From positions 35,356 to 99,355 of the forward strand of contig JAWAFA010000002.1 of NCBI GenBank assembly GCA_038890875.1: a stretch of 64,000 nt of DNA. Direction: 5' to 3'. The first letter of the stretch is position 1. Each line of letters begins with the position of its first letter. The position numbers and the translations under genes were made by a program. This DNA comes from Candidatus Pacearchaeota archaeon (GTDB taxonomy: Archaea > Nanobdellota > Nanobdellia > Pacearchaeales > JAPDKA01). Shown here one piece after another: positions 1 through 41,495 of this stretch. The notes under the pieces are model-generated. The model searched no databases. It was not told where the DNA came from and was given only the letters and a program-made list of their open reading frames with translations.

Positions 1-89
1 GCATAGTTGATTGTGAAATTTTCTTCATAAGCATAGGCAAAGCTAATAATAAAAAATATAAAAAGAATAACTAAAAAAACTTTTTTCAT
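1..89 (-). CDS. N-terminal fragment (signal-peptide-like) of a secreted or membrane protein that continues past the left window edge
   Basis: Reverse strand has ATG at 89..87, then MKKVFLVILFIFFIISFAYAYEENFTINY, open to position 1. Absent from the ORF track because it is truncated. Confidence 0.35.
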   Translation of the reverse strand, partial: MKKVFLVILFIFFIISFAYAYEENFTINY

Positions 90-645
90 TTTTATACATT
101 TTCCTTGTTTTACCTCTTTTATTTTATAATAAAAAATTAATTTAAAAACTTTTCATATTTTAAAAATGCCCAGTTTGTAACCATTATTTTGGCACAAGAT
201 AAATGAAAAATTCTTGTTGTTTTTGAAGATTTTCCTTTTAATTGTCTTAGCAATTTCCTGCTCTACAAAATTGCCGACATGGCTTTTAAGCTGTGGCAAA
301 ATAGGATTTGAGTTTAGATCAGCTATAGAGGGAAAAGCGAGAGCTTTAAAATAAGCGCAATGAATGATTATGCATTTTCGCGAAATCTTTCAAAGAAAGA
401 TAAAAGCTCCAAATGTTTTTCTATTTGATTTAAAGGACTTGGCCAGAATTTTAAAATTATGAGAACTAAAAAATTAGGGTGAAGCTGAGCGGCAGAGCAA
501 AGGCAGAGAGTAGTCCGGAAACTCAACTTAGACCAATACTTCTTAATGAAGTTATGATAAAACATAAAATTTATATACCAAAAGAGAATATAACTGGTTG
601 AGCATAAAAAAATTAAACATATTCCGAGAAGGAAGGTAAGATAAG

Positions 646-2160
646 ATGAAATCTAATGGTGCAAATTTAGGTTTTGAACAAAAACTATGGCAAGCAGCAG
701 ACAAGTTAAGAAGCAATATGGATGCTGCAGAATATAAGCATATTGTTTTAGGCTTGATTTTCTTAAAATACATTTCTGACTCTTTTAAAGAAGTTTATGA
801 CGAATTGAAAAAAGATCCAGAAGCTGATCCAGAAGATGTTGATGAATATATTGCAAGAAGAGTTTTTTGGGTTCCTAAAGAAGCGCGATGGGAATACTTA
901 CAGGCTAATGCAAAAAAACCAGAGATAGGCGAGTTAATAGATCATGCGATGGATATTATCGAAAGAGACAATCCGTCATTAAAAGGAGTTCTTCCAAAAA
1001 TTTATGCTAGACCTGCATTAAGTAAACAACGCTTAGGAGAGCTAATAGATTTAATTGGTACTATTGGTTTAGGTGATAAAGAAAATAAAAGTAAAGATAT
1101 TCTTGGCAGAGTTTATGAATATTTTCTTGGACAATTTGCAGATGCTGAGGGCAAGAAAGGCGGCCAATTCTACACGCCTAGGTGCATTGTAAAATTACTT
1201 GTTGAAATGCTCGAACCATACAAAGGAAGGATATTTGACCCTTGCTGTGGTTCAGGAGGAATGTTTGTTCAATCAGAAAAATTTGTTGAGGCTCATGGCG
1301 GGAAAATAGGAGACATCTCAATTTACGGCCAAGAAAGCAATCAAACAACATGGCGTTTATGCAAAATGAACCTTGCGATAAGAAGAATTGATGCAAACAT
1401 AAAGTGGGGCGATTCATTTCATGATGATCAGTTTAAAGATTTAAAAGCAGATTTTATTCTTGCTAATCCTCCTTTTAATGACTCTGACTGGGGTGGCGAA
1501 TTATTACAGGAAGATGTTAGATGGAAGTTTGGTATTCCTCCAAAAGGAAATGCTAATTTTGCATGGGTTCAGCATTTTATCCATCATTTGTCACCAACAG
1601 GAATTGCTGGTTTTGTTCTTGCTAACGGCTCTTTAAGCTCAATGACTTCTAATGAAGGTGAGATAAGAAAAAATATTGTTAAAGCTGACTTAGTTGATTG
1701 CATAGTTGCTTTACCTTCTCAGTTGTTCTATAATACAATGATTCCAGCTTGCTTATGGTTTATTTCTCGTGATAAAAAAGATAACAAGTTTAAGGATAGA
1801 AGAGGCAAGATTTTGTTTATTGATGCAAGAAAAATGGGGGTGATGGTTGATAGGAGACATAGGGAATTGACAGATGAAGAAATAAAGAAAATTGCTGATA
1901 CATATCATGCATGGAGAGGAGAAAATAAACTTGAGTATAAAGATATTCCTGGCTTTTGTAAATCTGCCACATTAGAAGAAGTTGAAAAAAATAATTTTAT
2001 CTTAACACCAGGCCGTTATGTTGGCTTTGAAGAGCAAGAAGAGCCAGAAGAAGTTTTTGAAGAAAAAATGAAAAAGCTCACAGCAGAACTAAAACAACAA
2101 ATGGAAGAAAGCAAAAAGCTCGACGAAGAAATCAAAAGAAATTTGGAGATGCTGGGATAG
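646..2160 (+). CDS. hsdM: Type I restriction-modification system, DNA methyltransferase subunit HsdM
   Basis: N-terminal HsdM-type helix (LWQAADKLR), AdoMet motif [10 protein letters not shown], catalytic NPPF (FILANPPFN). First gene of an hsdM/S/R operon. Confidence 0.93.
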
Positions 2161-2170
2161 AGAGTTTGAG

Positions 2171-4003
2171 ATGAAAATTAATGAAGATTTTTTATTAGCT
2201 GTTGATGATATATTTGGTATCTTGAACTGTATCAAAATAGTAAGTAATCTAGAGAATTTCAAAAATTGGTTAAAAAGTGAACATAAATTAAAAAATGTTG
2301 AAGGCGTGTTTGATGGATACAAGTTTTTTCTAGAATCTGCAATTAGGACATTTTTAAATACGTTAATTTACAATTCTTCTTTGGGCATAGATGAAGATTT
2401 TGTTTTTTATAGAGCAAGATTTGTAGGAGTAGAATTAAATAAAATACCTAACACTTGTGAAAAAACTATTTTGATTAAAAATATCAATGAAAAATTGAAA
2501 TTAATAAAGAAATCGAAGAATTATGAAGAATTAAAATCTGCTATAATCCAATTTAATAGTATTTTAGATATTTTCAAGATAATATATGATAATAATGTAG
2601 AAGTTAATCCTAAACTAAATATAAACAAAGATTTAGCTCTGAAGTATTTAACTATGTTTTATACATATATTTATCTGAATGATACTTCAAGATTTATACC
2701 ACATGGATATTGGGTCAGCATATTGAATAACGAAATTCCGCCCGAAAAGCTCAAGAAAAATTTCAAAGGATATAAATATACTCTTCAATTTTTATGGTCT
2801 GTCTTATTAGGAGAAAAATATGTTTCAACGAGTATTGCTAATTTACATAAAGCCGATGATTGGAGTAGTGAAGATGATTTCCTGTTTGATTTAAGTCGTG
2901 AAAATAAAACAATAACTCAAAGAGAAGATTTAGATAGTTATTTTAGAAAGATTCGAAAGGAAATAATCGAGCCAATAGAGAAGGAATTAAAGATAAATTT
3001 AAATTTCACTAAAATTCTTTACTTGAGAAATAAAATTTTAAAAAAGATTTTTAAAGATTTATTAAAACAACCTAAAGAGCCGCAATTAAATGAAAAAGAG
3101 AAATTGGATTATAATTTATTATGGTATCAGATTGAGTTTTTGGATTCTTCAAAGATCCGTATTTTCGATGGAGTGCCAGCCTTTATTTCATTATTAGTTG
3201 GAACTGCTGAACTTAAAAGAATATTTTCAGAAAATGAAAAGGCGTATATTTGTAAATTTATCCATCCGAATAAATCAGTAAATGGGAATGATTTTAGTTA
3301 TGGGGTTTTAATAGAGGCGTTTGGAAGTATTGGTGATTACTCAGGTTGGATTTTGTTTTTTGATTGTTGTGGCGATTATTCGGGACTTTCTGGTTCTGAG
3401 CATACTATGGCCGAAAAGTTTATTGAAGAATACAAAAAGAAAGGCCGGATAGAAGTCAGAGAAATGACTATAAGTAAAGATAAACTAAAAGAATATATTG
3501 CTGATAAAATAACAAGTGGGAAAAGAGAAGAAATTTTGCAGGCTCTAAAAAAAGAAGCTAGAATAAGACAAGAAAGAGATATTATTAGCGAAGCACAAGG
3601 TTTAGTTCTTGAACTGATAACTTATTATACTCTTTCAAAAAAGATTTATGATTTAGTTGATTGGAATGTAAATCTAAATAAAGATCAATTAGACATAATC
3701 GTAGAAACAAAAAATGAATTTAAACTTATAGAGTGCAAGTCTACTCCTAATAACATAAACATAAATGACGAGATCAATAAATTAAGAACAAAATTGAAAA
3801 ATTGTAACACAAATAAGACTAAGAAAGGTGAATTTTGGTTTTGGATACGACCTACAGAAAACATAATTAAAAAACTAAATAAAGAGGGGATAAGTTTTGT
3901 AGTAGTTTCTGAGTTAATAGATTTGGATGATATTTGGAAAAACAAAAAGAAAGACAAACTTAAAACAATTTTTAATTTTAATAAAAAAATAATGAGGAAT
4001 TAG
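2171..4003 (+). CDS. Uncharacterised 610-aa protein with a C-terminal PD-(D/E)XK nuclease-like motif, embedded in the Type I R-M operon
   Basis: Long ORF starting 10 nt after hsdM and ending 4 nt before hsdS. C-terminal pattern: E481 (LVLELI), D508 (QLDIIV), E521-C-K523 (LIECK). Duplicated GDYSG motif at residues 388-405. I recognise no named family. Confidence 0.6.
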   Translation: MKINEDFLLAVDDIFGILNCIKIVSNLENFKNWLKSEHKLKNVEGVFDGYKFFLESAIRTFLNTLIYNSSLGIDEDFVFYRARFVGVELNKIPNTCEKTILIKNINEKLKLIKKSKNYEELKSAIIQFNSILDIFKIIYDNNVEVNPKLNINKDLALKYLTMFYTYIYLNDTSRFIPHGYWVSILNNEIPPEKLKKNFKGYKYTLQFLWSVLLGEKYVSTSIANLHKADDWSSEDDFLFDLSRENKTITQREDLDSYFRKIRKEIIEPIEKELKINLNFTKILYLRNKILKKIFKDLLKQPKEPQLNEKEKLDYNLLWYQIEFLDSSKIRIFDGVPAFISLLVGTAELKRIFSENEKAYICKFIHPNKSVNGNDFSYGVLIEAFGSIGDYSGWILFFDCCGDYSGLSGSEHTMAEKFIEEYKKKGRIEVREMTISKDKLKEYIADKITSGKREEILQALKKEARIRQERDIISEAQGLVLELITYYTLSKKIYDLVDWNVNLNKDQLDIIVETKNEFKLIECKSTPNNININDEINKLRTKLKNCNTNKTKKGEFWFWIRPTENIIKKLNKEGISFVVVSELIDLDDIWKNKKKDKLKTIFNFNKKIMRN

Positions 4004-4007
4004 AAAT

Positions 4008-5288
4008 ATGAAACCCCAAACCCAAACTAAAAAATTCAAACAAACCGAAATCGGAATGATTCCTGAGGATTGGGAAGAAACAACAATTGGGGTTATCTGC
4101 AATATTAAAAATGGTAAAACTAACACGCAGGATGCTGTAGAGGATGGAGAATACCCTTTATTTGATCGTTCAGCGCAAATTAAACGAAGTAACAAATTTA
4201 TATTTGATTGTGAAGCAATAATTGTGCCTGGTGAAGGAAAAGAATTTCTACCACGATATTTTGAAGGGAAATTTGATTTACACCAAAGATCTTATGCTAT
4301 TTGGAAAAAAGAAAATGTTAATCTAAAGTTTGTTTATTATTGGATTCTTAAAAATAGAGATTATCTCTCTAGAGTTGCTGTTGGTTCTACTGTTAGATCT
4401 CTAAGAATTGGTCATTTACAAAGTTTTCCATTAGGTTTACCTCCCCTTCCCGAGCAACGCGCCATTGCTAAAGTTCTTTCGGCATTTGATGATAAAATCG
4501 AATTATTGCAAAAAATGAACAAAACCCTTGAGGCAATTGGCCAGGCAATTTTCAAGCACTGGTTTGTTGATTTTGAATTTCCAAACGAGGAAGGCAAGCC
4601 CTACAAGTCATCAGGAGGAGAAATGGTTTATAATGAAGAATTAGGCAAAGAAATACCGAAGGGGTGGAGGGTTGGAAAGTTGGGGGAGATTGGAATTTTC
4701 AAAAATGGAGTTAATTATCTAAGAGATGGAAAAGGAGATACAGAATTTTTTATTGTGAATGTTAGAGACATAGCAAATAATAAATTTCTATTAAAAGAGA
4801 AATTAGATAAGATAAGGATAGAATATAATAAAGCAAAAGATTATTTATTATTACCAAACGATATCATTATTGCAAGGAGTGCAAGCCCTGGGGAGGTTTC
4901 TCTGGTTGTTGGCGATACTAATAATATAATTTTCTCGGGGTTCAGCATTCGCTTAAGATTACATAATATTAATAATTGGTTGTATATTTTTTTATTATTG
5001 CAGAATCTAAAACAACAATTAACTAGTTTTTCTATAGGAACGACACTTACTAGTGTTAATCAAGAAACATTAAAAAATATGCCAATCATTCTACCATCTG
5101 AAACTGTTTTAAGTAATTTTAATAAAATCATTGAAATTGTCTTTAACAGGATTGCATATAATCTCAATCAGTTCCTCACTCTCTCCGCTCTTCGCGATTC
5201 TCTCCTTCCTAAACTTATGTCTGGCAAAATCAGAGTTCCTGTGGAGATGATAAAAGAAATGGAAAAGGAGATTGAAAAATCTGCTTAA
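4008..5288 (+). CDS. hsdS: Type I restriction-modification system, specificity subunit HsdS
   Basis: Two target-recognition halves separated by the conserved central helix (LPPLPEQRAIAKVLSAFDDKIELL). Conserved C-terminal helix (LRDSLLPKLMSGKIRV). Confidence 0.9.
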   Translation: MKPQTQTKKFKQTEIGMIPEDWEETTIGVICNIKNGKTNTQDAVEDGEYPLFDRSAQIKRSNKFIFDCEAIIVPGEGKEFLPRYFEGKFDLHQRSYAIWKKENVNLKFVYYWILKNRDYLSRVAVGSTVRSLRIGHLQSFPLGLPPLPEQRAIAKVLSAFDDKIELLQKMNKTLEAIGQAIFKHWFVDFEFPNEEGKPYKSSGGEMVYNEELGKEIPKGWRVGKLGEIGIFKNGVNYLRDGKGDTEFFIVNVRDIANNKFLLKEKLDKIRIEYNKAKDYLLLPNDIIIARSASPGEVSLVVGDTNNIIFSGFSIRLRLHNINNWLYIFLLLQNLKQQLTSFSIGTTLTSVNQETLKNMPIILPSETVLSNFNKIIEIVFNRIAYNLNQFLTLSALRDSLLPKLMSGKIRVPVEMIKEMEKEIEKSA

Positions 5289-5295
5289 AGCAAAA

Positions 5296-5395
5296 TGTTA
5301 ATATTTTTTAACACTTGTTAATTATTTTTAACATTAGATTTTATTATGGTTTAATTTTCAAAAGATTTAAATATTAATGTTAATTATTCTTAACA
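5296..5395. promoter_or_regulatory. Internal promoter/operator region: three copies of the palindrome TGTTAA-N6-TTAACA plus a TATA-like box
   Basis: Palindromes at 5296..5313, 5316..5333 and 5378..5395. The first two are spaced 20 bp apart. TTTAAATA sits at 5366..5373, about 24 nt before the ATG at 5397. The third palindrome lies between the TATA box and the start codon. Confidence 0.5.
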
Positions 5396-5396
5396 T

Positions 5397-5909
5397 ATGT
5401 TAGAAATATTTAACACTTTGAAACCTTTCTTTGAAGATTGTTATAGACGTATTAATGTTCGCGAATATGCAAGAATTCAAAAAATAAGCCCTCCGACAGC
5501 TTCAAAGATTCTTGAAAAATTGCATAAAGAAGGTTTGCTAAAAAAAGAAAAAGAGAATCTTTATAATTATTATTTCGCAAATAAAGATTCTGAGTTTTTC
5601 ATAGAATTATCAAGAATTTATTGGAAAAGAATATTAGAAGATTCAGGATTGTTAGAAGAGCTAGAAAAAAACCTGCTAAATCCGATAATTTATCTTTTTG
5701 GTTCTTTATCAAAAGCAGAAGCGAAAGTTGATTCTGACATTGATATAGCAATTTTTACACCAAAGAAAAAAGAAATTAATCTTGAAAAATTTGAAAAACT
5801 TCTAAAAAGGAAAATACAGATTTTTGTTTTTAAGGATATGAAAGATGTAAAAAATGAAGAACTGCTTAAAAATATACTAAATGGATTTAAAATAAAAGGA
5901 AGCTGGTAA
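5397..5909 (+). CDS. Minimal nucleotidyltransferase (MNT) with an N-terminal winged-helix DNA-binding domain
   Basis: wHTH-like segment VREYARIQKISPPTASKILEKLHKEGLL. Pol-beta NTase motif GSLSKAEAKVDSDIDIAIF. Confidence 0.8.
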   Translation: MLEIFNTLKPFFEDCYRRINVREYARIQKISPPTASKILEKLHKEGLLKKEKENLYNYYFANKDSEFFIELSRIYWKRILEDSGLLEELEKNLLNPIIYLFGSLSKAEAKVDSDIDIAIFTPKKKEINLEKFEKLLKRKIQIFVFKDMKDVKNEELLKNILNGFKIKGSW

Positions 5910-6314
5910 ATGGACTGGAAAGAGTGCTTAAAACAAAGAATTGTGAAAGAAACAAAAGAAGATAAAAATCTAGTAAAATCTTTATTAGAAACAGCAGAAA
6001 TAAAATTAAAGTCTGCTGATTCTTTGGCCGATGAATTTTTTATAAGTAAAATTTCTCTATTATATGATTCTCTAAGAGAAATTCTAGAAGCACTAGCTAT
6101 TAAAAAAGGATTTAGGATTTATAACCATGAATGCTATGTTGCTTTTCTAAAGGAGATAATGGGTTTATCAAGAGAAGCAGAAATTTTTAATAATTTGAGA
6201 AAAACTAGAAATGATATAAATTATTATGGAAAAAAACTTGAAAAAGAAGAAGCAAAAGTAATTATAGGAAAATTAAAGAATTTAATTTCGAAATTTAAAA
6301 ATGTGATAAAATGA
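5910..6314 (+). CDS. HEPN-domain protein, partner of the preceding MNT
   Basis: About 130 aa and all-helical. Starts at the base after the MNT stop and overlaps hsdR by 4 nt. Motif [12 protein letters not shown] resembles the HEPN Rx4-6H region but has Tyr where His is expected. Confidence 0.65.
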
Positions 6315-9300
6315 AAAAAGCAATCTCTGAATCAGATGTTGAAGAATTTGTTTTGTCTTTGCTAGAGAAATTAGGTTATGAAATAATCAGAGGGAATAAT
6401 GAGAATTACTTGCCAAATGGAAAATATGCGCTAAGGCAAAGATATGAAGATGTTGTGCTTGTTGATAGATTGCGACAGGCTTTGAGAAGGATTAATCCAC
6501 AGGTATCAGAAGAAGCTAGAGAACAAGTAATAAAAGAAATTCTAAGAATAGGAAGCCAAAAGTTGCTTGTTGACAATGAAACCTTTCACAGAATGCTTAC
6601 TGATGGAGTCAGCATTCCTATAAAAAAAGAAGGTGAAGAAAGACACGTTTTGATTAATCTATTTGATTTTAAAGATATAAAAAATAATGATTTTCTCGCT
6701 GTTAATCAATTTACAGTAATAGAAAAAGATGAAAGAAGACTTGATATTGTTTTATTTGTTAATGGTTTGCCTCTAGTTGTTATAGAGTTAAAAAATCCTA
6801 CTGATGAAAATGCAACAATCTGGACAGCATATAATCAACTTCAAACATATAAAGAGCAGATACCATCTTTGTTCAAGTATAATGAAATTTTAGTTATTAG
6901 TGATGGAATAGAAGCAAGAGCAGGTACAATTACATCTGAGCCAGAGAGGTTTATGCAGTGGAAAACAATAGATGGAGAAAAACCAAAAAAGGGGTTAACA
7001 GAGATAGAAATTTTAATTAGAGGTATGTTTGGCAAAAACAGACTTCTGGATATTGTAAGAAACTTTATTGTTTTTGAAAAAGATAAAGAAACAAAAAAGA
7101 AATTAGCGGCATATCACCAATATTGGGCGGCAAATAAAGCAATAGAATCAACATTGCAAGCAAGAAAAACAAACAAAAAAGCAGGCATTGTATGGCATAC
7201 TCAAGGTTCTGGAAAATCTTTAACAATGATTTTTTATGCTGGAAAAATAATCCGAGAGATGGATAATCCAACAATAGTTGTTATTACAGATAGAAATGAT
7301 CTTGATGACCAGTTATTTGGAACTTTTAGCAAGTGTCAAGATATATTAAGGCAAAAACCAGTTAAGGCAAACACAAGAAAAGAATTAATGGAATTGCTTA
7401 AAGTTTCTTCTGGTGGAGTTGTCTTTACAACAATTCAAAAATTCTTTCCTGAAGAGGATAGAGAAAAATACCCTACACTATCAGAGCGAGATAATATTAT
7501 TGTAATAGCGGATGAAGCTCATAGAAGTCAATATGGATTTCCTGCAAAAATACTAAAGAAAGAAGATAAAGCATTAATTACTTATGGCTATGCAAAGTAC
7601 TTAAGAGATGCTTTACCAAATGCTTCATTTATTGGTTTCACAGGAACTCCAATAGAAAAAGCAGATAGATCAACACCAGCAGTATTTGGAAAATATGTTG
7701 ATGTTTATGATATAGAACAAGCAGTGAATGACGGCGCTACTGTAAGAATATTTTATGAAAGTAGATTGGCAAAGTTAGATTTAAAACCAGAAGAAAGACC
7801 AAAGATTGATCCTGAATTTGAGGAGGTAACAGAAGGCGAAGAAGTAGAACATAAAGAAAAATTAAAGAGCAAATGGGCAAGACTCGAAAAGATTGCAGGC
7901 GCTCCTAAAAGAATAAGAAGGATTGCAAAAGACATCGTGAATCATTTTGAGCAAAGGCTTTCTGTTCTTGATGGAAAAGGAATGATTGTATGCATGTCAA
8001 GAAGAATATGTATTGACCTTTATAATGAGATAATAAAACTAAGGCCAGAGTGGCATAATCAAGATGATGATAAAGGCTTTATCAAAGTCGTAATAACAGG
8101 CTCTGCTTCTGACCCGAAAGAATGGCAGCAATATATAAGAAACAAAGCCAGAAGAAAGAAAATAGGTGATAATTTTAAAGACCCAAAACATGAAACTAAA
8201 TTGCTTATTGTAAGAGATATGTTCTTGACAGGTTTTGATGTACCATCTTTACATACAATGTATCTTGATAAACCAATGAAGGGCCATACTTTAATGCAAG
8301 CTATAGCGAGAGTAAACAGAGTTTATCCTGGAAAGGAAGGTGGTTTAGTTGTTGACTATATGGGTGTTGGTGCTGAATTGAAAAAAGCTTTGATGGAGTA
8401 CACAGAAAGCGGGGGTAAAGGGAAACCAACACTAGATCAAGAAGAGGCAGTAAGATTAATGTTAGAAAAATATGAAATTGTAAAAGATATGTTTTATGGT
8501 TTTAATTACAAGAAATTTTTTGAGCTTTCGCCAAAAGAAAGGTTAGCTTTCATACCAAATGCAATAGAGCATATACTAAAAGAGCCTGGTAAAAAAGAAA
8601 GATTTGAAAAAGAAGCCACTGCTCTTGTTAAAGCATTTTCTTTAGCAGTTCCTCATGAAAAGGCAATGAAAATTAAGGAAGAAGTTGGTTTCTTCCAGGC
8701 ATTAAAATCAACAATATCAAAAACAATTGAAACTAAAAAAGACACAAAGGAACAGTACGAAACAGCGATCAAACAGATTATCTCAAAAGCAGTAATCTCT
8801 GATAGAATTATAGATATATTTGAAGCTGCTGGAATTCAAAAGCCGGAACTTTCTATTCTATCAGAGGGCTTTTTGGCCGAAGTAAAAGAGATGCCTCAGA
8901 AAAACTTAGCATTTGAAGCGCTAAAAAAATTATTGAACGATGAGATTAAAATAATTTCAAAAAGAAACCTTGTTCAAGGCAAATCTTTTATGGAGATGCT
9001 AGACAGAACAATAAAAAAATATACGAATAGAGCTGTAGAGGCCGCGCAAGTTATAGAAGAATTAATAGAGTTAGCAAGAAAAGTTAGAGAAGAAAAAAAC
9101 AGAGGAAAAGAGTTAGGAATGAGTGAAGATGAACTTGCATTTTATGATGCACTTGAAGTTAATGATAGCGCGGTTAAAATACTTGGTGATGAGACTCTAC
9201 GAAAAATAGCACTCGAACTAACACAAATGATAAGAAAAAGTGTTACAATAGACTGGACACAAAGAGAAAGTGTTCAAGCAGAGTTGCGCCTCAAAGTAAA

Positions 9301-9406
9301 GAAAATACTAAGAAAATACGGCTATCCACCTGATAAAGAGAAAAAGGCAACAGAAACAGTTTTAAAACAGGCAGAGTTAGTTGCCGGAAATTTAGTTGGT
9401 GTGTGA
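6311..9406 (+). CDS. hsdR: Type I restriction enzyme, restriction (helicase/endonuclease) subunit HsdR
   Basis: N-terminal nuclease core ([17 protein letters not shown]). SF2 motifs: [12 protein letters not shown] ([10 protein letters not shown]), [12 protein letters not shown]. Confidence 0.93.
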
Positions 9407-9502
9407 GGCCAGACATTTGCCAATTCATTTAACTTAAGAAATCTCCACGTTATTGCGAACGATTGTGGCAAGATTTTTAAAAACTAAATTCATGCTTTTT
9501 TT

Positions 9503-11425
9503 ATGAAGGCGTTATTTTTGCATTGCAACAGTATTTATTTTAGGCCGCTACAAAAAGCGATACCCAGTGCTGAAGAAGTTTCGGAGAAATTAAAAAAAGA
9601 AGGTGAAAAAATTAATGAAGCATTAGTTGTATTTACGAGTGTAGAAGTTAATGACGATGAAGGTTGTGTTCTACAACTTACTGATGAGATAAAAAATGTT
9701 TTAAAGCAAATCAAGGCAAAAAATGTTGTTATCTACCCTTATGTCCACTTAAGCCAAAGTCCAGCTCAACCTAGTCTCGCATTAGACCTTTTAATGAAAG
9801 CAGAGAAAGAAGTAAAAAAACTTAAAGGGATAGAAGTTGTAAGAGCTCCATTTGGCTGGTATAAAGAGTTTGATATTAATGTTAAGGGCCATCCATTATC
9901 AGAATTAAGTCGAGAAATAAAACCTAGCGAAGCGAAAAGCAAAGAAAAAAAAGTTAGTGAAAAAGAGGAAATAAGTAAAGCATTAAAGGCTGAAGAAAAG
10001 GCAATAAGTAGTTGGTATATTCTTGATCTAGATGGAAATCTTCATAAAATAACTTTGAAAGGAGAAGAGATTAGTGGGTTTGATTTTTCTGAATATGAAA
10101 ATTTAGAAAAATTTGCAAGATATGAAATGAAAAAAATCAGAGCGGTTAATGTTGAACCACCACATGTTAAATACATGCGTGAGCTTGAACTTGTCGATTA
10201 TGAGAATGCTAGCGATCCAGGAAACTTTAGATTTTACCCCAAAGGTAAGATTATAAAGGCATTACTTGAGGAATTTGTAACAAAACAGATTCTTGATTAT
10301 GGTGCTCTTGAAGTTGAGACGCCAATTATGTATGACTTTGAACATCCAGCTTTAAAAGCATATCTTAATAAGTTTCCTGCTAGACAGTATTCAATTATCA
10401 CTCCAAATAAAAAAGTTTTTTTAAGATTTGCCGCTTGCTTTGGCCAATTCATTATGGCAAGCCAAGCAGGAATAAGTTATAAACACTTGCCACTTAGACT
10501 TTATGAACTTACAAAATATAGCTTTAGAGTTGAGCAGCATGGTGAGTTAGTCGGTTTACGTCGATTGCGTACTTTTACCATGCCTGATTGCCATTGCTTA
10601 TGCAAAGATTTAGAACAAGCTAAAGAAGAAATGAAGATAAGATTTGAATTAGCTAAAAGAACTTTAAAAGGGATTGGTTTCACCTTTCCAGATGATTTCG
10701 AATTAGGTATCAGAGTTACAAAAGATTTTTGGCAAGAGAATAATGAGTTTATTAAATCATTAGTAAAACTTTTTGGTAAACCAGCATTAATTGAAATGTG
10801 GCCAGAACGCTATTTTTATTTTGTGCTAAAATATGAGCTAAATTTTATAGATGCACTAAATAAAGCATCAGCACTAGCAACCGATCAAATTGATGTAGGC
10901 AATGCTCAAAATTATGGGATAACTTATATCGACAGTAATAATGAGAAAAAATATCCAGTAATCTTACATCTATCTCCTAGTGGGAGCATAGAGCGGGTTA
11001 TGTATGCTTTGCTTGAAAAAGCTTACCTTCAGGAAAAAGCTAGAAAAAAACCAAGTTTACCATTTTGGCTTAGCCCAATTCATGCAAGAATTGTCCCTGT
11101 TAGTGAAAAATATGTTGACGAAGCTATTGAAATAGCTAAAGACCTTAATGAGCATAATGAACTTAGAGTAGATGTTGATGATCGTGATTTACATGTTGGT
11201 TATAAAATTAGGCAAGCCGAAATGGAATGGATCCCTTATATTATTGTCATAGGCAAGAAAGAATTAGAGAACGAAGTGTTTACTGTAAGGATCCGCGAAA
11301 CTGGAGAAATTAAAGAGATACCTCCAGGAAAGTTTAGAGAGATGGTTAAAAATAAAATGGAAGGAATGCCGTTTCGACCTCTCTCTCTTCCATTCCTTCT
11401 TAGTAAAAGACCTAGATTTGTGTAA
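9503..11425 (+). CDS. thrS: Threonyl-tRNA synthetase, archaeal type with an N-terminal editing domain
   Basis: 640 aa. Archaeal-style N-terminus (MKALFLHCNSIYFRP), class II catalytic core and C-terminal anticodon-binding domain. Confidence 0.9.
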   Translation: MKALFLHCNSIYFRPLQKAIPSAEEVSEKLKKEGEKINEALVVFTSVEVNDDEGCVLQLTDEIKNVLKQIKAKNVVIYPYVHLSQSPAQPSLALDLLMKAEKEVKKLKGIEVVRAPFGWYKEFDINVKGHPLSELSREIKPSEAKSKEKKVSEKEEISKALKAEEKAISSWYILDLDGNLHKITLKGEEISGFDFSEYENLEKFARYEMKKIRAVNVEPPHVKYMRELELVDYENASDPGNFRFYPKGKIIKALLEEFVTKQILDYGALEVETPIMYDFEHPALKAYLNKFPARQYSIITPNKKVFLRFAACFGQFIMASQAGISYKHLPLRLYELTKYSFRVEQHGELVGLRRLRTFTMPDCHCLCKDLEQAKEEMKIRFELAKRTLKGIGFTFPDDFELGIRVTKDFWQENNEFIKSLVKLFGKPALIEMWPERYFYFVLKYELNFIDALNKASALATDQIDVGNAQNYGITYIDSNNEKKYPVILHLSPSGSIERVMYALLEKAYLQEKARKKPSLPFWLSPIHARIVPVSEKYVDEAIEIAKDLNEHNELRVDVDDRDLHVGYKIRQAEMEWIPYIIVIGKKELENEVFTVRIRETGEIKEIPPGKFREMVKNKMEGMPFRPLSLPFLLSKRPRFV

Positions 11426-11429
11426 AGAG

Positions 11430-11939
11430 ATGATAAAACAAAAGTTTGCTGAGTTGAAAAGACAACCAATATTTAAGCTTGAAAAAGGCTTTCAACTTTT
11501 TCTTGTTTTTTGCATAACTGATTCAAGCCTGAATATTGAGCAGATTGATTTCAGTTTTATAAGTTCAAATTCAAGCGGCAAAAATAAAAATGAGAAGGAA
11601 TATAAACCTCATAAAATAAAAAATTTCTCTTTTAAAGGAGGGGTTTGGCAGTTTCACAAAAGTGAAGAAGAAAAAAATTTTGGCACGATTAATATTAAGG
11701 ATGTAAAAGATATTCCAGAGCTTTTACCAAAAATTAAACACCTTTTGGAAGATAAAAAACTTAGTATTGACAAATTTATTTTTATACTAGAGAATAAAAA
11801 AGGCTCTGAAATTTACAGTGTGACTTGCCTGTGCAAAGACTTTTTTGTCTATAAGATAACATTTGACGCAAAAACTTTAAACTTACTCGATACAAAAATG
11901 CATAACTTGTTCGACTTTTTCCAGATTAAAAAAGTATAA
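11430..11939 (+). CDS. Hypothetical protein
   Basis: The ORF is open from a TTG at 11418. The first ATG, at 11430, lies just after the thrS stop. No recognisable motif. Confidence 0.4.
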   Translation: MIKQKFAELKRQPIFKLEKGFQLFLVFCITDSSLNIEQIDFSFISSNSSGKNKNEKEYKPHKIKNFSFKGGVWQFHKSEEEKNFGTINIKDVKDIPELLPKIKHLLEDKKLSIDKFIFILENKKGSEIYSVTCLCKDFFVYKITFDAKTLNLLDTKMHNLFDFFQIKKV

Positions 11940-11977
11940 AAGTATAAAAACTTATTGCTGCAAAAAGAAGCTGCTGA

Positions 11978-12429
11978 TTTTGCTTTTTCTCGCATTACTC
12001 TTTTTGTTGGTTTTATAAGCAAAATTCTTCAAAATTTGTCTCGAAAGCTAGCAATGAGATAGTAATTAATAACTTTGCTTTTGATCCACCAGAATTGATT
12101 GTTGATGCTGATACAGAAGTGATATGGAGGCAAGAAGACGATGTTGTTCACAATATTGTTTCAGATGAAAATTTATTTATGAGCGATGTGTTAAAAAAAA
12201 GGGAATCAAACAAAATTGCGGCTCTAAAAAAACAAAAGAAGATTGGGAAACTGTTTAAAGAGACATTGATTGTTAGTATTTGTGTCTCGTCTTAGATTTT
12301 TTATTTCACCTTCTTTTAACAAGACCGATGGAATCTTTGACTTACTTTATCATAAAACTTCTGGCTTTTTTTCTCGCAACAGGAATGCTTAGTTTAGCGA
12401 TTTTTAAAATAAAGAAAAAAAGAATATAG
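11978..12429 (+). pseudogene. Possible decayed cupredoxin-like (plastocyanin-fold) gene with a detached C-terminal membrane anchor
   Basis: Frame open from 11978 with no ATG. It reads NNFAFDPPELIVDADTEVIWRQEDDVVHNIVSDENLF, a cupredoxin N-terminal pattern that includes the first His ligand. It then stops (ICVSS*) where the Cys-His-Met ligand loop is expected. A separate 33-codon TM-anchor ORF occupies 12328..12429. Confidence 0.3.
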
Positions 12430-12622
12430 ATCATAACTTTAACTATTTGATTTTTAGCACTCTAATGTCAATTTATTATAGGGCATGGGAGCTAGGAGAA
12501 GCAAAAGTTTCATTTGGCTCGAGAGCGCCGGATATTATTTTTTTATCTCGAGACACCATCTTGTTTAGTCTAACATGGGGCTTGGGCATGCTTTGTTTTT
12601 TATTGTAGGAGTTATAATTGCA

Positions 12623-13765
12623 CTAAGTTAAAAAATTCCGTAAGAGCCACATCTCCTTTCTCACTTTACTTGTTGAACAATGTAGGGATTTACTTAGTTC
12701 TTCTACAAGTTTTTTTTCTTCACTAACCTTCCTTCGATAAAGTTCAATAAAATAAGAAGGATAGCTATATTTTACAAATACTTTAGTTTTTTTATTAGCA
12801 ATGTTAGCATAAGGCCCAACTGCGCATAAAAAGATGTTTACATAAGCAAGAAAACGCCAATACTGCCATCTTATGATTCTGTGAATGTATAGATCTGCCA
12901 AGCTAAGCATTTCATAAGCTCTTGCTAATGCTTCTTTTTCATACTCACGATACAAATTTTCATCAATCCATCTAATAATCTCTTCCATTTCAATATCAAC
13001 ATTTTCAAAAAGTTCTGATGTAAGGATAGTTGAATTAAACAATAACCTTAGTGCATCAAAAATTTTTTGTTCTTTGTCTCTTGACGAAAATCGCAAGTAT
13101 TCACTCACTTCCCCAAGTAAAACTTTTTTATTCCTCTCAGCAAGAGTTTGCAAGTCATTTATAGCTGCACGTGCATCACCTTTAGCATTAGCTGCAATAA
13201 GTTTTAATGTTTCATCACTAACATCGATCTTCTCATTTTTTGCAACTCGTTTTAGTATTTTTATAATATCAACGATGCTCAATTTCTTTGTTTCGATGAT
13301 TAATTGATGTTTTTTTCTTAATTCCGTGAATCTTTTATTGTAAGGATCATTAGTAATCAAGAGAATTGGGTAGGGAGAACTATCAATAATTAATGAAAGT
13401 TCAGCTAAACCGCCCCTATCTTCTTGCCCTGAAATACCTTCTAATTCATCAATAATTATCAACTTGTTTTTATCAAATAAACTCTTCTGTTTTATTGCTT
13501 CACTAACTGTTTGTTTTATGTGTGCTTTGTCACGAAAATCACTGGCATTTAGCTCTATGAGCTCGAGTTTAAGTTGATTGGCTAAGGCATAAGCTAAAGC
13601 AGTTTTGCCTGTACCAGGCGGTCCATAGATTATGCATGCTTTAGCTTTTTCTTTTATATTTTCATAATTTTTGATAAAACTATATACTTTTATCTTTTCT
13701 TCTTCCAAATTTTGTAATTCATTTAAATTGCGTGGCCTATATTTTTCCGCCCATATTTCAGCCAT
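12623..13765 (-). CDS. rfcL: Replication factor C, large subunit
   Basis: WAEKYRP start, Walker A GPPGTGKTA, Walker B IIIDELEG. Adjacent to rfcS. Confidence 0.85.
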   Translation of the reverse strand: MAEIWAEKYRPRNLNELQNLEEEKIKVYSFIKNYENIKEKAKACIIYGPPGTGKTALAYALANQLKLELIELNASDFRDKAHIKQTVSEAIKQKSLFDKNKLIIIDELEGISGQEDRGGLAELSLIIDSSPYPILLITNDPYNKRFTELRKKHQLIIETKKLSIVDIIKILKRVAKNEKIDVSDETLKLIAANAKGDARAAINDLQTLAERNKKVLLGEVSEYLRFSSRDKEQKIFDALRLLFNSTILTSELFENVDIEMEEIIRWIDENLYREYEKEALARAYEMLSLADLYIHRIIRWQYWRFLAYVNIFLCAVGPYANIANKKTKVFVKYSYPSYFIELYRRKVSEEKKLVEELSKSLHCSTSKVRKEMWLLRNFLT

Positions 13766-16457: not shown

Positions 16458-17870
16458 TTACTCAGTTTCAGATTCTTTTTCAATAAATAAAGTAGCTGTA
16501 TTACTTTGTTTGATAATCTTGTGACCTTTTACATCAATGTACTTTAGCTTGGCTGGAGGCAACTCAAGACGGCCTTCATATTTTAATTTACTCACACAAA
16601 TATAATTTATGTTTTTCTCCTCTCCAGGAAGTATTTCTCCAATCTTCCAATAAAGCTTATTATTCTCAACTTTATCAGGAATAGTTATCCCATACTCGTG
16701 ATATTTCATTGATAGAGGAATGAAATCAAGTAAAGCAACATCTTTTAATGGCGAAAAGGTTTTGTTTTTTATTGTTAAATATACTCTAAGTGCGAAACCT
16801 GCTTTTGTTTTAACTTTTCTTGCTTCTTTTATTATGACTATGTATTGTCTCATAGTAAAGTAAACAAGTAAAGCGAGTATAATGATAATTACTAGAGGTA
16901 TAATAAGCCAAGCATAATTAACTTTAATATCAATACTCACACTCTCGCCAGGCTGTAAGAAGCTTTCAAAAACATAAACATATTTTCCTTCTCTTTTCTT
17001 AACTTCAATTGGCTCTGCACTAGCTTTGGCAAAAAGCTTTTCAAAAGCACTAAGAGGTATTTCAAATATGACTTTAGTTGCGGCATTGCCTAAATTTGTC
17101 TTTTTAACTCCAATTGTTTTTCCAATAAAGATTATATTTTCATAAGTTTTACTTACAATATTTTTATATTCACTAATCAAGATACTTGCCTCAAATCTGT
17201 ATTTTTCATTTTCTTTTTCACCTGATGCCAAAACAAAAACAACAAGTTTTTCACCAGCTTTCTCCTGCATTAATTTTTCATTAATTTTTAGTGTCAATTC
17301 TTTTTCTTCGTAAGGCTTTAAAGAAATCTCTTGTTTTCCTTCAATAAATTCAGACTCGGAACTAAAGATTAGCTTATCAAAACCAATATTAAGATTATTT
17401 TTTATTTTTACCTTAAGTTCACTATCTCCATAGTTGAGAGGTTGAAAAACAATATTAAATGCATTTTTTGCTTTGATTATTTCAAAAGTATACCTATCTT
17501 CATAAACTTCTTGGGAATTTTTAATATAATAAGTATAAGTATATTTTCCTGGAATTCTTAATTTAGGATAAATAGTGAGTTTGATATCTTTAGTTTCCAT
17601 TCCATCAAATTTTATTGAATCTGAAGGGAAAAGCAAAACATCAAGCAAGGAGAAAAATTTATAATAATCAGTAAAAATTTGAGTATTTTTAACTTGAAGA
17701 GTATATTCAAGAGGGATATTAGCAAATTCTGCAACAATTATATCTCTTACTGGTGTTTTTTTAAATACAAATGTTTCTTGAGCTTGAACTAAAGAACTAA
17801 ACAATATTATGATTAGAAAAATTTCAAACAAATAAACCAGCTCATTTTTTATTTTAATCATTGCATTCAT
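16458..17870 (-). CDS. Membrane protein with a large beta-rich extracellular region and a DUF11/CARDB-like C-terminal domain
   Basis: N-terminal signal anchor. TM helix near residue 320 (YAWLIIPLVIIIILALLVYF). Beta-strand-like repeats. No enzyme motif. Confidence 0.55.
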   Translation of the reverse strand: MNAMIKIKNELVYLFEIFLIIILFSSLVQAQETFVFKKTPVRDIIVAEFANIPLEYTLQVKNTQIFTDYYKFFSLLDVLLFPSDSIKFDGMETKDIKLTIYPKLRIPGKYTYTYYIKNSQEVYEDRYTFEIIKAKNAFNIVFQPLNYGDSELKVKIKNNLNIGFDKLIFSSESEFIEGKQEISLKPYEEKELTLKINEKLMQEKAGEKLVVFVLASGEKENEKYRFEASILISEYKNIVSKTYENIIFIGKTIGVKKTNLGNAATKVIFEIPLSAFEKLFAKASAEPIEVKKREGKYVYVFESFLQPGESVSIDIKVNYAWLIIPLVIIIILALLVYFTMRQYIVIIKEARKVKTKAGFALRVYLTIKNKTFSPLKDVALLDFIPLSMKYHEYGITIPDKVENNKLYWKIGEILPGEEKNINYICVSKLKYEGRLELPPAKLKYIDVKGHKIIKQSNTATLFIEKESETE

Positions 17871-39357: not shown

Positions 39358-39507
39358 TCCCCGCGGCCGGACTCGAACCAGCAACCCCTCGGTATCTGCA
39401 TCATAACTTAAATGAGCACGAGCTGGACAGCTCTCATTGATGCTTAAGCTTGGCTTAAGCTGCTCAAGCTTCTACAGCCGAGTGCTCTACCGTTGAGCTA
39501 CGCGGGG
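39358..39507 (-). tRNA. tRNA-Tyr (GTA) with an intron of ~78 nt at the canonical 37/38 position
   Basis: Acceptor CCCCGCG/CGCGGGG with C1:G72 and discriminator A. D arm GCTC-AACGGTA-GAGC. Anticodon stem CTCGG/CCGAG interrupted after CTGTAG. T arm GCTGG-TTCGAGT-CCGGC. No encoded CCA. Confidence 0.85.
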
Positions 39508-41032: not shown

Positions 41033-41106
41033 TGCGCCGGCCGGGATTCGAACCCAGGTTACGAGCTTGGCAAGCTCGTGTCATAGCCAGTCTAGACCAC
41101 CGGCGC
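41033..41106 (-). tRNA. tRNA-Gly (GCC)
   Basis: Cloverleaf: GCGCCGG acceptor, anticodon stem CGAGC/GCTCG with loop TTGCCAA, T arm CTGGG-TTCGAAT-CCCGG. Confidence 0.92.
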
Positions 41107-41422: not shown

Positions 41423-41495
41423 TGGCCCCGCCAGGATTCGAACCTGGGACCTTTCGCACGTCAAGCGAACGTCTTAACCACTAGACCACGGGGCC
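41423..41495 (-). tRNA. tRNA-Val (GAC)
   Basis: GGCCCCG acceptor, D arm GTCT-AGTGGTTA-AGAC, anticodon stem TTCGC/GCGAA with loop TTGACGT, T arm CCAGG-TTCGAAT-CCTGG. Confidence 0.92.

Follow-up and report, generated by a model that had tools for sequence, protein, structure and literature searches.

Within a 64,000-nucleotide stretch of DNA from a Candidatus Pacearchaeota archaeon (the window; assembly GCA_038890875.1, contig JAWAFA010000002.1, positions 35,356 to 99,355), we analysed an uncharacterised gene, here called X, that lies inside a type I restriction-modification (R-M) operon (Table 1). The genes follow one another on the same strand in the order hsdM, X, hsdS, HTH-nucleotidyltransferase, HEPN-like gene and hsdR. 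Exactly 10 nucleotides separate hsdM from X (hsdM TAG, AGAGTTTGAG, X ATG) and exactly four separate X from hsdS (TAG, AAAT, ATG), as an initial annotation of the sequence had it, and Pfam identifies the flanking genes as hsd genes. A GAGG Shine-Dalgarno-like motif for hsdS is located within the 3' end of X, and a scan with bacterial consensus patterns found no terminator-like sites on the + strand of positions 1-9700; a sigma-70 promoter scan of the window is uninformative for an archaeon. From the spacing, co-transcription and translational coupling of X with the hsd genes are plausible.

The composition of X gives no sign of a recent arrival. At 0.216, its GC content at third codon positions (GC3) agrees with the window background (0.241 +/- 0.038); because GC3 is native-like, we attribute the low GC of X to its amino-acid composition and reject a recent foreign acquisition by this measure. 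We also rejected an insertion sequence or homing element: the two junctions leave no room for terminal repeats, X has no transposase-like domain, and viral and phage collections hold no relatives.

Table 1. Positions in the window of X, its predicted parts and the other genes of the operon
Feature	Position	Strand	Remarks
X	2171..4003	+	610-amino acid open reading frame (ORF), ATG start; member of an unnamed family
N-domain of X, residues 1-440	2171..3490	+	putative sensor or regulatory module
Duplicated GDYSG motif, residues 388-392 and 401-405	3332..3385	+	at the two ends of strand 392-401
Predicted C-terminal PD-(D/E)xK nuclease domain, residues ~451-610	3521..4003	+	model, Foldseek, profile, conservation
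Candidate catalytic residues of X	E481 3611-3613, D508 3692-3694, E521 3731-3733, K523 3737-3739	+
hsdM (HsdM_N + N6_Mtase)	646..2160	+	Pfam N6_Mtase 7.7e-116
hsdS (two Methylase_S target-recognition domains)	4008..5288	+	Pfam Methylase_S 1e-34
HTH-nucleotidyltransferase, 170 amino acids	5397-5909	+	PADLOC candidate PDC-M05A/B pair with the HEPN-like gene
HEPN-like protein, 134 amino acids	5910-6314	+	PADLOC candidate PDC-M05A/B pair with the HTH-nucleotidyltransferase
hsdR (HSDR_N, SWI2_SNF2, T1RH-like_C)	6311..9406	+	Pfam

The C-terminus of X is a predicted PD-(D/E)xK nuclease, as its modelled fold, its motif conservation and profile comparison indicate. In an AlphaFold2 model built on 78 homologues (mean predicted local distance difference test score (pLDDT) 90, predicted template modelling score 0.77), this region contains the canonical alpha-beta-beta-beta-alpha-beta core, made of helix 451-489, strands 495-502, 505-512 and 516-523, helix 531-543 and strand 550-557, all modelled at a pLDDT of ~90-96. 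E481 resides on the first helix, D508 on the second strand, and E521 and K523 on the third. The initial annotation had proposed a restriction-endonuclease-like C-terminus from three short motifs, LVLELI (E481), QLDIIV (D508) and LIECK (E521/K523); each lies where it was placed, and across 70 full-length homologues the residues are strongly conserved (E481 96%, D508 97%, E521 93%, C522 97% and K523 90%).

Structural comparison agrees with this assignment. Searched against the PDB with Foldseek, X returned only nucleases of the PD-(D/E)xK fold, with Can2 (8bao) as the best match (3.8e-4), followed by VC1899, Card1 (6xl1; 111 columns, 3.5 A), NucS, Cdn1 and EndoMS. The Foldseek probability was 1.0 for Can2, Card1, NucS, EndoMS and AF1548; MspJI was also present among the fold matches, and in BFVD restriction-endonuclease-like viral proteins were matched. 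A profile of the C-domain alone matches Can2 by sequence (8bao 0.0035, 7bdv 0.021), aligning QIDvi...liECK over EIDCI...FVECK. Weak Pfam matches that recur among 78 family members all fall within the PD-(D/E)xK clan, namely NERD (18 members), UPF0102 (10), Card1_endonuc (7) and DUF234 (4). For X itself, Card1_endonuc (PF09002) scores 15.5 bits, under its gathering cut-off of 26.4, and PADLOC, run on the C-terminus alone, yields only weak CARF_PDDEXK matches. Because all named-family matches stay below their thresholds, we place X in the PD-(D/E)xK superfamily, nearest to the nuclease domains of Can2 and Card1 but outside that family.

The N-domain belongs to no described family or fold in the resources that we queried. 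The first ~460 residues had been reported as resembling nothing recognisable, and in line with this we found no match to the N-domain in Pfam, NCBIfam or PADLOC (searched with X alone and, for Pfam, also with the 78 members), none among PDB sequences at E<=10 by phmmer or profile, and no credible Foldseek match in the PDB or BFVD. Foldseek alignments of X with low root-mean-square deviation are restricted to the ~110-column nuclease part. For residues 1-440, CARF is matched in neither Pfam nor PADLOC, and Pfam, PADLOC and Foldseek reveal no reader of modified DNA (SRA, winged helix, DUF262 and similar). By eye, X contains no P-loop.

This domain is the best-conserved part of X and, except for a variable loop at ~228-255, is modelled with confidence. 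Residues 1-315 are mostly helical, and residues 320-433 form an alpha/beta subdomain with the predicted topology beta-alpha-beta-beta-beta-alpha-beta, whose consecutive strands, in our own reading, do not look Rossmann-like. P177, G200, G344 and H365 are invariant, and D76, R81, N94, C96, K98, H226, D255, W318, Y319, D398, D402 and E415 are more than 90% conserved. A duplicated GDYSG motif, already remarked on in the initial annotation, is present within FGSIGDYSGWILFFDCCGDYSGLSG and is a conserved feature of the family rather than a chance repeat: the family consensus reads SDYSGWxLFFDCCGDYSG, and S391, G392, W393, D398, D402 and G405 are conserved at 94-99% across 78 aligned proteins.

X belongs to a sizeable family that has escaped annotation. 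A word-indexed search found 78 clusters, all named 'hypothetical' and without Pfam domains, and an exhaustive search with an N-domain profile brought in at least 448 representatives, clustered at 50%, of which 291 score below 1e-30; the N-domain is placed N-terminally in every match. All members are unannotated and go unseen by Pfam, NCBIfam and PADLOC. The family is mostly archaeal and is distributed patchily over many archaeal phyla, in Nanoarchaeota, Aenigmarchaeota, Methanoperedens, ANME-1, Methanosarcina, Methanoregula, Halorhabdus, Haloarcula, Thermoplasmatales, Thermococcus, Thaumarchaeota and Atabeyarchaeia; the bacterial hosts are a few Bacteroidetes, Spirochaetes and Dehalococcoidales. 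Among 2.9 million viral contigs and 50,697 phage records we found no relatives, and 72,556 plasmid records gave only three matches, all haloarchaeal and one covering just 11% of the query. One cultured host is Haloarcula marismortui, whose megaplasmid pNG500 encodes a full-length homologue (WP_011222360.1; locus L109, 8563-10407; 25% identity, E 7e-48) that keeps the ECK motif and lies near a HEPN-domain protein and a PIN/AbrB pair. Other cultured hosts are Methanosarcina sp. MTP4 (MSMTP_1018), Thermococcus eurythermalis (TEU_09930) and Halorhabdus salina.

Upon sorting 213 family proteins into architectures with hidden Markov models (HMMs), we observed that the N-domain stays constant while the domain behind it changes. 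The N-domain is joined to a Can2-like nuclease in 163 proteins (77%), stands by itself in 19 (~9%) and carries another tail in 20 (~9%); the remaining 11 are fragments. Among the other tails, that of P0186 is a TIR domain, by precomputed Pfam assignment (PF13676) and by phmmer matches to AbTIR, BtTir and BtpA (2e-4 to 2e-3), and that of P0211 is TIR-like. The tails of P0222 (named 'ATP-binding protein' by NCBI), P0229, P0238 and P0241 resemble Schlafen/AlbA_2; for P0229 the resemblance is a series of marginal matches led by SLFN12 (0.0035), then SLFN14, 8, 5 and 11. By motif inspection alone, P0125 and P0200 have apparently Mrr-like tails, a label that for P0200 is a motif-level guess, since a phmmer search of its tail against the PDB found nothing. 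P0125 has been labelled 'energy-converting hydrogenase A subunit M' by JGI, an apparent mis-annotation. At least nine representatives (P0055, P0058, P0116, P0132, P0151, P0167, P0175, P0180 and P0187) share a further tail of ~200 amino acids, which is helical and then runs into a 'GIEILGTGAKHIVTIP'-like segment; P0167 has no Pfam match.

The short form of the family, an N-domain protein of 445 amino acids, extends this pattern to separate proteins. In 25 of 91 surveyed loci it is followed on the same strand, after a median gap of 41 bp, by a gene encoding ~148 amino acids. With template modelling scores up to 0.70, the model of this partner (pLDDT 91) resembles both TIR domains (SfSTING, TIR-1/SARM1 and BtpA) and the nucleotide N-glycosidases DNPH1 and BcmB. 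DUF4062, which is reported to be a TIR-like NADase defence effector (bioRxiv 10.64898/2026.05.01.722283, 10.64898/2026.06.25.731849), is weakly matched by 11 of 20 partners, with all partner matches below the Pfam threshold. We rejected the reading that the short form and its partner are the same protein split in two: neither the C-domain HMM nor tblastn finds anything in the 148-amino acid gene, and the TIR/DNPH1 fold of the partner also counters it. Three loci encode variants of the partner with 312-314 amino acids (L057 6775-7710, L062 2600-3541 and L072 3315-4250), in which the conserved glutamate (E86 of the 148-amino acid form) is replaced by leucine. They add a C-terminal domain of ~165 amino acids (DWGGExCDL...GFVFKG...GKNGDQ) without a Pfam or PADLOC match, which may be a further effector substitution. 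Because one constant domain is joined to several unrelated 'weapon' domains, we read the N-domain as a probable immune sensor with swappable effectors; this modularity is the main basis for our mechanistic proposal.

The genomic surroundings of the family depend on how close a member is to X. At 74 non-redundant loci we surveyed 95 immediate neighbours. None of their Pfam families occurs more than three times (N6_Mtase occurs twice); because no neighbour family recurs, the long form has no obligate partner. None of the 25 most frequent Pfam/PADLOC families of these neighbours, surveyed within short flanks, is a cas family. Defence genes are sporadically nearby, among them MADS, type IIG R-M, BrxL, AbiEi/AbiEii, AbiU/AIPR, PDC-S01, PDC-S09 and PDC-S39. 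In the first 91 loci, type I R-M genes are near family members only at L018, L026 and L088.

The family-wide neighbours suggest that R-M linkage is absent; within the close clade (at least ~50% identity to X), the loci show the opposite. L095 (71% identity) has hsdM-X with an 8-nucleotide overlap; L096 (67%) has the 3' end of hsdM, then X-hsdS-hsdR-YgjP; L099 (62%) has hsdS-X-hsdM with 2-nucleotide gaps; L104 to L106 (54%) have an EcoEI-type hsdR, a HEPN gene, a 72-amino acid ORF, X and hsdS; and L018 (51%) has hsdM-?-hsdS-?-hsdR-YgjP-X. With the window included, type I R-M genes are linked to X in 6 of ~15 informative close-clade loci, in at least four gene orders. They are missing from L001, L016, L098, L100, L102, L107, L108 and L015, and few distant relatives have them. 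In a neighbour-joining tree the R-M-linked members are spread over at least three lineages and mix with unlinked ones. Type I systems number slightly fewer than one per archaeal genome on average (PMC10609329), and these genomes average 1.8 Mb (PMC12988326). In ~126 kb of close-clade flank we observed five type I systems besides that of the window, all directly adjacent to X, where ~0.07 would be expected, a ~70-fold excess. Type I R-M linkage in the close clade is enriched, not obligatory. A tblastn search with the window HsdS is insensitive here, having missed the Pfam-confirmed hsdS genes of L099 and L104.

Comparison of these operons reveals that the conservation of X is decoupled from that of the R-M system. 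Between the window and L095, X is 71% identical, whereas the adjoining HsdM is 33% identical; between the window and L096, X is 67% identical, against 30% for HsdR and 25% for HsdS. The nucleotide similarity of the window to L095 (75%) spans 2201 to 3988, lies wholly inside X and ends there. The HsdR families beside X also differ, T1RH-like_C in the window and EcoEI_R_C in L104. Because X is similar while the Hsd proteins diverge, the same gene occupies the same slot of unrelated type I systems, and by these comparisons X appears to behave as a discrete cassette that favours type I operons, not as a co-evolving subunit.

Several of these loci hold further genes of note. At L099, where the cluster covers 8820-13293, a PDC-S39/EMARD_N protein (6588-8471) is encoded upstream of hsdS-X-hsdM. 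At L018, a 368-amino acid ORF between hsdM and hsdS (2695-3798) matches the last ~300 residues of long PADLOC MTase_I models, and a 330-amino acid ORF between hsdS and hsdR (5044-6033) matches nothing anywhere. Directly upstream of X at L104 (2398-3371; also at L105 and L106) are the genes for a 252-amino acid HEPN protein and the 72-amino acid ORF, making L104 a second operon with both a HEPN module and X, of EcoEI type and in an order unlike that of the window. The possibility that such embedded ORFs (368 and 330 amino acids at L018, 72 at L104, and 120, 229 and 300 at L099) are cryptic relatives of X was rejected, as none matches the N-domain, C-domain or partner HMM. A DUF8128 gene stands one or two genes downstream of X at L107 (3171-4022) and L108 (4520-5410), and L108 also has an AIPR/AbiU gene upstream of X on the opposite strand.

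Known defence systems resemble X in part. Can2 and Card1, ancillary nucleases of type III CRISPR whose N-terminal CARF domain binds cyclic oligoadenylate (PMC7969007), are the nearest relatives of its nuclease by fold and sequence profile, with an aligned D...ECK motif, and likewise place a regulatory domain in front of a C-terminal PD-(D/E)xK nuclease. By contrast, X has no CARF domain, its N-domain has about double the size and is related to no known fold, its Card1_endonuc match is below threshold, and cas genes are missing from the top-listed neighbour families. The best functional analogy is Shedu (SduA, DUF4263), a single defence protein whose C-terminal PD-(D/E)xK nuclease is controlled by N-terminal domains of various kinds, sensory or inhibitory (bioRxiv 10.1101/2023.08.10.552793, 10.1101/2023.08.10.552762). 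The arrangement is reversed, however: Shedu keeps its nuclease core and varies its sensors, whereas the X family keeps its N-domain and varies its effectors. In addition, X has no PADLOC match, and DUF4263 is not among its listed Pfam matches.

PrrC/RloC and TgvAB (PMC12707154, PMC11411939) share with X the position of a same-strand gene nested among hsd genes. PrrC combines an ABC-ATPase with an anticodon nuclease and is almost always embedded, whereas the X family is embedded in a minority of loci; TgvAB is GmrSD-like, and X shares no domain with either. No ATPase or PrrC match to X was found in Pfam, NCBIfam or PADLOC. Being uncharacterised and lodged within a type I R-M operon, X is the kind of gene from which the 145 PADLOC PDC candidates were drawn (bioRxiv 10.1101/2024.01.29.577857), yet full-length X matches zero families in PADLOC-DB v2.0.0, likely because the family is mostly archaeal and metagenomic whereas the PDCs derive from RefSeq. 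The DUF4062/TIR-like NADase systems Swarozyc and Evangelion, in which a TIR-like core is coupled to auxiliary sensing regions (bioRxiv 10.64898/2026.05.01.722283, 10.64898/2026.06.25.731849), resemble the short form, whose partner has a TIR/NDT fold and weak DUF4062 similarity. This likeness concerns sister loci rather than the gene in the window, the partner matches stay below the Pfam threshold, and the auxiliary module is a separate 445-amino acid protein without a match to a described family.

Taken on balance, we lean towards X being an autonomous sensor-effector defence protein whose N-domain gates a Can2-like DNase, with the R-M operon as its landing pad. In this mechanism, the N-domain would hold the C-terminal Can2/Card1-like nuclease inactive until it senses infection, through either a viral component or a change in the state of the cell, and would then release or assemble the nuclease. 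The nuclease would cut DNA, so that the invader is destroyed or the cell is arrested or killed (abortive infection). In sister lineages the N-domain would instead activate a fused TIR, Schlafen-like or apparently Mrr-like restriction-endonuclease domain, or a separate TIR/DNPH1-fold protein. Placement between hsdM and hsdS would give co-expression and co-transfer with a first-line defence rather than an obligatory physical partnership. Embedding has served as a predictor of defence genes before: 'guilt-by-embedding' led to seven predicted systems that were confirmed experimentally (bioRxiv 10.1101/2024.01.29.577857), and TgvAB is a defence module within a type I R-M operon (PMC11411939).

Several points weigh against this proposal. 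The function given for X is a prediction, and the trigger, the substrate and the autoinhibition within it are pure inference. Every named-family match of the nuclease falls below curated thresholds, and the near-invariant polar residues C96, K98, H226, H365, D398, D402 and E415 could equally mean that the N-domain is an enzyme, not a passive sensor. Many homologues sit amid housekeeping genes without a defence neighbour (L001, L016 and L100), and the genes of the neighbour survey were called by a crude greedy ORF picker.

The initial annotation had proposed a defence effector or sensor that is guarded by, or guards, the type I enzyme. The general part of this proposal gains from the sensor-effector anatomy, the restriction-endonuclease core in the model, the R-M enrichment of close relatives and the lack of any match to a housekeeping family. 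The specific relationship fares less well. A guard of the PrrC kind would be bound and silenced by HsdM2S1 or the full type I complex and would fire when a viral anti-restriction protein inactivates the enzyme. PrrC provides the precedent (PMC12707154), and the position of X between hsdM and hsdS with the spacing of translational coupling, its embedding in or abutment to R-M genes in 6 of ~15 close relatives at ~70 times chance, and the use of the same slot by unrelated type I systems are all compatible with such a guard. Yet most family members stand alone without R-M genes nearby, whereas PrrC is almost exclusively embedded (bioRxiv 10.1101/2024.01.29.577857). An identity of 71% for X beside 33% for HsdM is hard to square with a co-evolving interface, and for this reason we favour an autonomous cassette. 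The different HsdR families, the position of X outside the hsd genes at L018, after hsdR and YgjP, and the N-domain's link to effectors unrelated to DNA restriction (TIR, Schlafen-like) point the same way and make a guard of this kind distinctly unlikely. We give a similarly low chance to a bolder version in which the N-domain is an unrecognised, archaea-centred sensor fold driving at least four effector chemistries (Can2-like DNase, TIR NADase, Schlafen-like domain and TIR/DNPH1-fold partner), with one clade specialised to the hsdM-hsdS junction of type I systems that are otherwise unrelated, where it would sense some conserved trait of the methyltransferase core or of failing restriction. 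If that were true, X would be an archaeal equivalent of PrrC, armed with a DNase and built on a new principle of sensing.

X might also act as a restriction enzyme of its own, similar to type IV enzymes, with the N-domain recognising foreign DNA by some feature, for example a free end or a modified base, and the PD-(D/E)xK domain cutting it directly, so as to complement the type I enzyme as TgvAB, Mrr or GmrSD do. An N-terminal reader before a C-terminal PD-(D/E)xK domain recalls Mrr and MspJI, the latter among the fold matches; type IV systems are known within type I operons (PMC11411939); P0125 and P0200 appear to have Mrr-like tails; and the partner, with its DNPH1/BcmB-like fold, is reminiscent of enzymes with nucleotide substrates. 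We nevertheless hold this to be unlikely: a novel reader is conceivable, but the N-domain showed none of the known folds for binding DNA or reading its modifications, the Mrr-like call comes from motif inspection alone and phmmer against the PDB found nothing, and swaps to TIR and Schlafen-like effectors, which act independently of binding to target DNA, fit a signalling sensor better. Those swaps would be equally unexpected of a nuclease for repair, recombination or mobile-element maintenance, or of a metabolic N-domain enzyme, hitch-hiking in variable regions, a role outside defence that is suggested by the use of PD-(D/E)xK domains in repair (NucS/EndoMS are among the fold matches), by loci with only housekeeping neighbours, by the enzyme-like conservation of the N-domain and by the native-like GC3 of X. 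The patchy distribution, which looks driven by horizontal transfer, the lack of a conserved partner or synteny, the junctions without terminal repeats or room for them, and the absence of X from viral, phage and almost all plasmid records render such a role improbable. Still less would we expect X to be an alternative or auxiliary nuclease subunit that relies on M2S1 to recognise the sequence, either replacing HsdR or working beside it. The hsdS-X-hsdM arrangement of L099 (2-nucleotide gaps), with no detectable hsdR within 10 kb either side, is what such a subunit would predict. Orphan pairs of HsdM and HsdS are common, however, hsdR is present in the window, L096, L104 and L018, and most family members have neither hsdM nor hsdS, which leaves this role very improbable.

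The window operon holds a second passenger. The PDC-M05 pair of nucleotidyltransferase (MNT) and HEPN genes is an embedded cassette separate from X: a 108-nucleotide gap precedes it, its GC3 values (0.175 and 0.141) are the lowest of the operon, and the stop of the HEPN-like gene overlaps the hsdR start by 4 nucleotides. PDC-M05 is reported to be probably archaeal in origin (PMC12988326). Around the operon the window genes are housekeeping ones, encoding RNA polymerase B and A', GluRS, an SMC-like ATPase and an S-layer protein, together with a ThrRS-like gene called by reading its translation. Two ORFs have no Pfam match, one of 173 amino acids (11418-11939, + strand, TTG start) that overlaps the 3' end of the ThrRS-like gene and one of 470 amino acids (16458-17870, - strand). 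The window HsdM falls into the same 90% cluster as proteins named Candidatus Woesearchaeota, and the host is probably a member of DPANN. A tRNA match on the - strand (39358-39507) spans 150 nucleotides, where an intron is probable, consistent with an archaeal host; two ordinary tRNAs are present at 41033-41106 and 41423-41495.

The modular single-protein immune sensor and the R-M-nested defence gene are familiar; the sensor domain and its family are undescribed in the resources that we queried. Its members occur in DPANN, methanogens, ANME, haloarchaea, Thermococcales, Thaumarchaeota and Asgard archaea. Should the family prove to be a defence system, it would add a new sensor domain to the known repertoire and provide a clean natural test of effector swapping, in which a single sensor is paired with several effectors. 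One gene in the same slot of unrelated type I operons would, in addition, allow the cause of nesting to be tested, be it co-regulation, co-transfer or real crosstalk. These questions are directly testable because homologues exist in cultured Haloarcula marismortui, Methanosarcina sp. MTP4 and Thermococcus eurythermalis.

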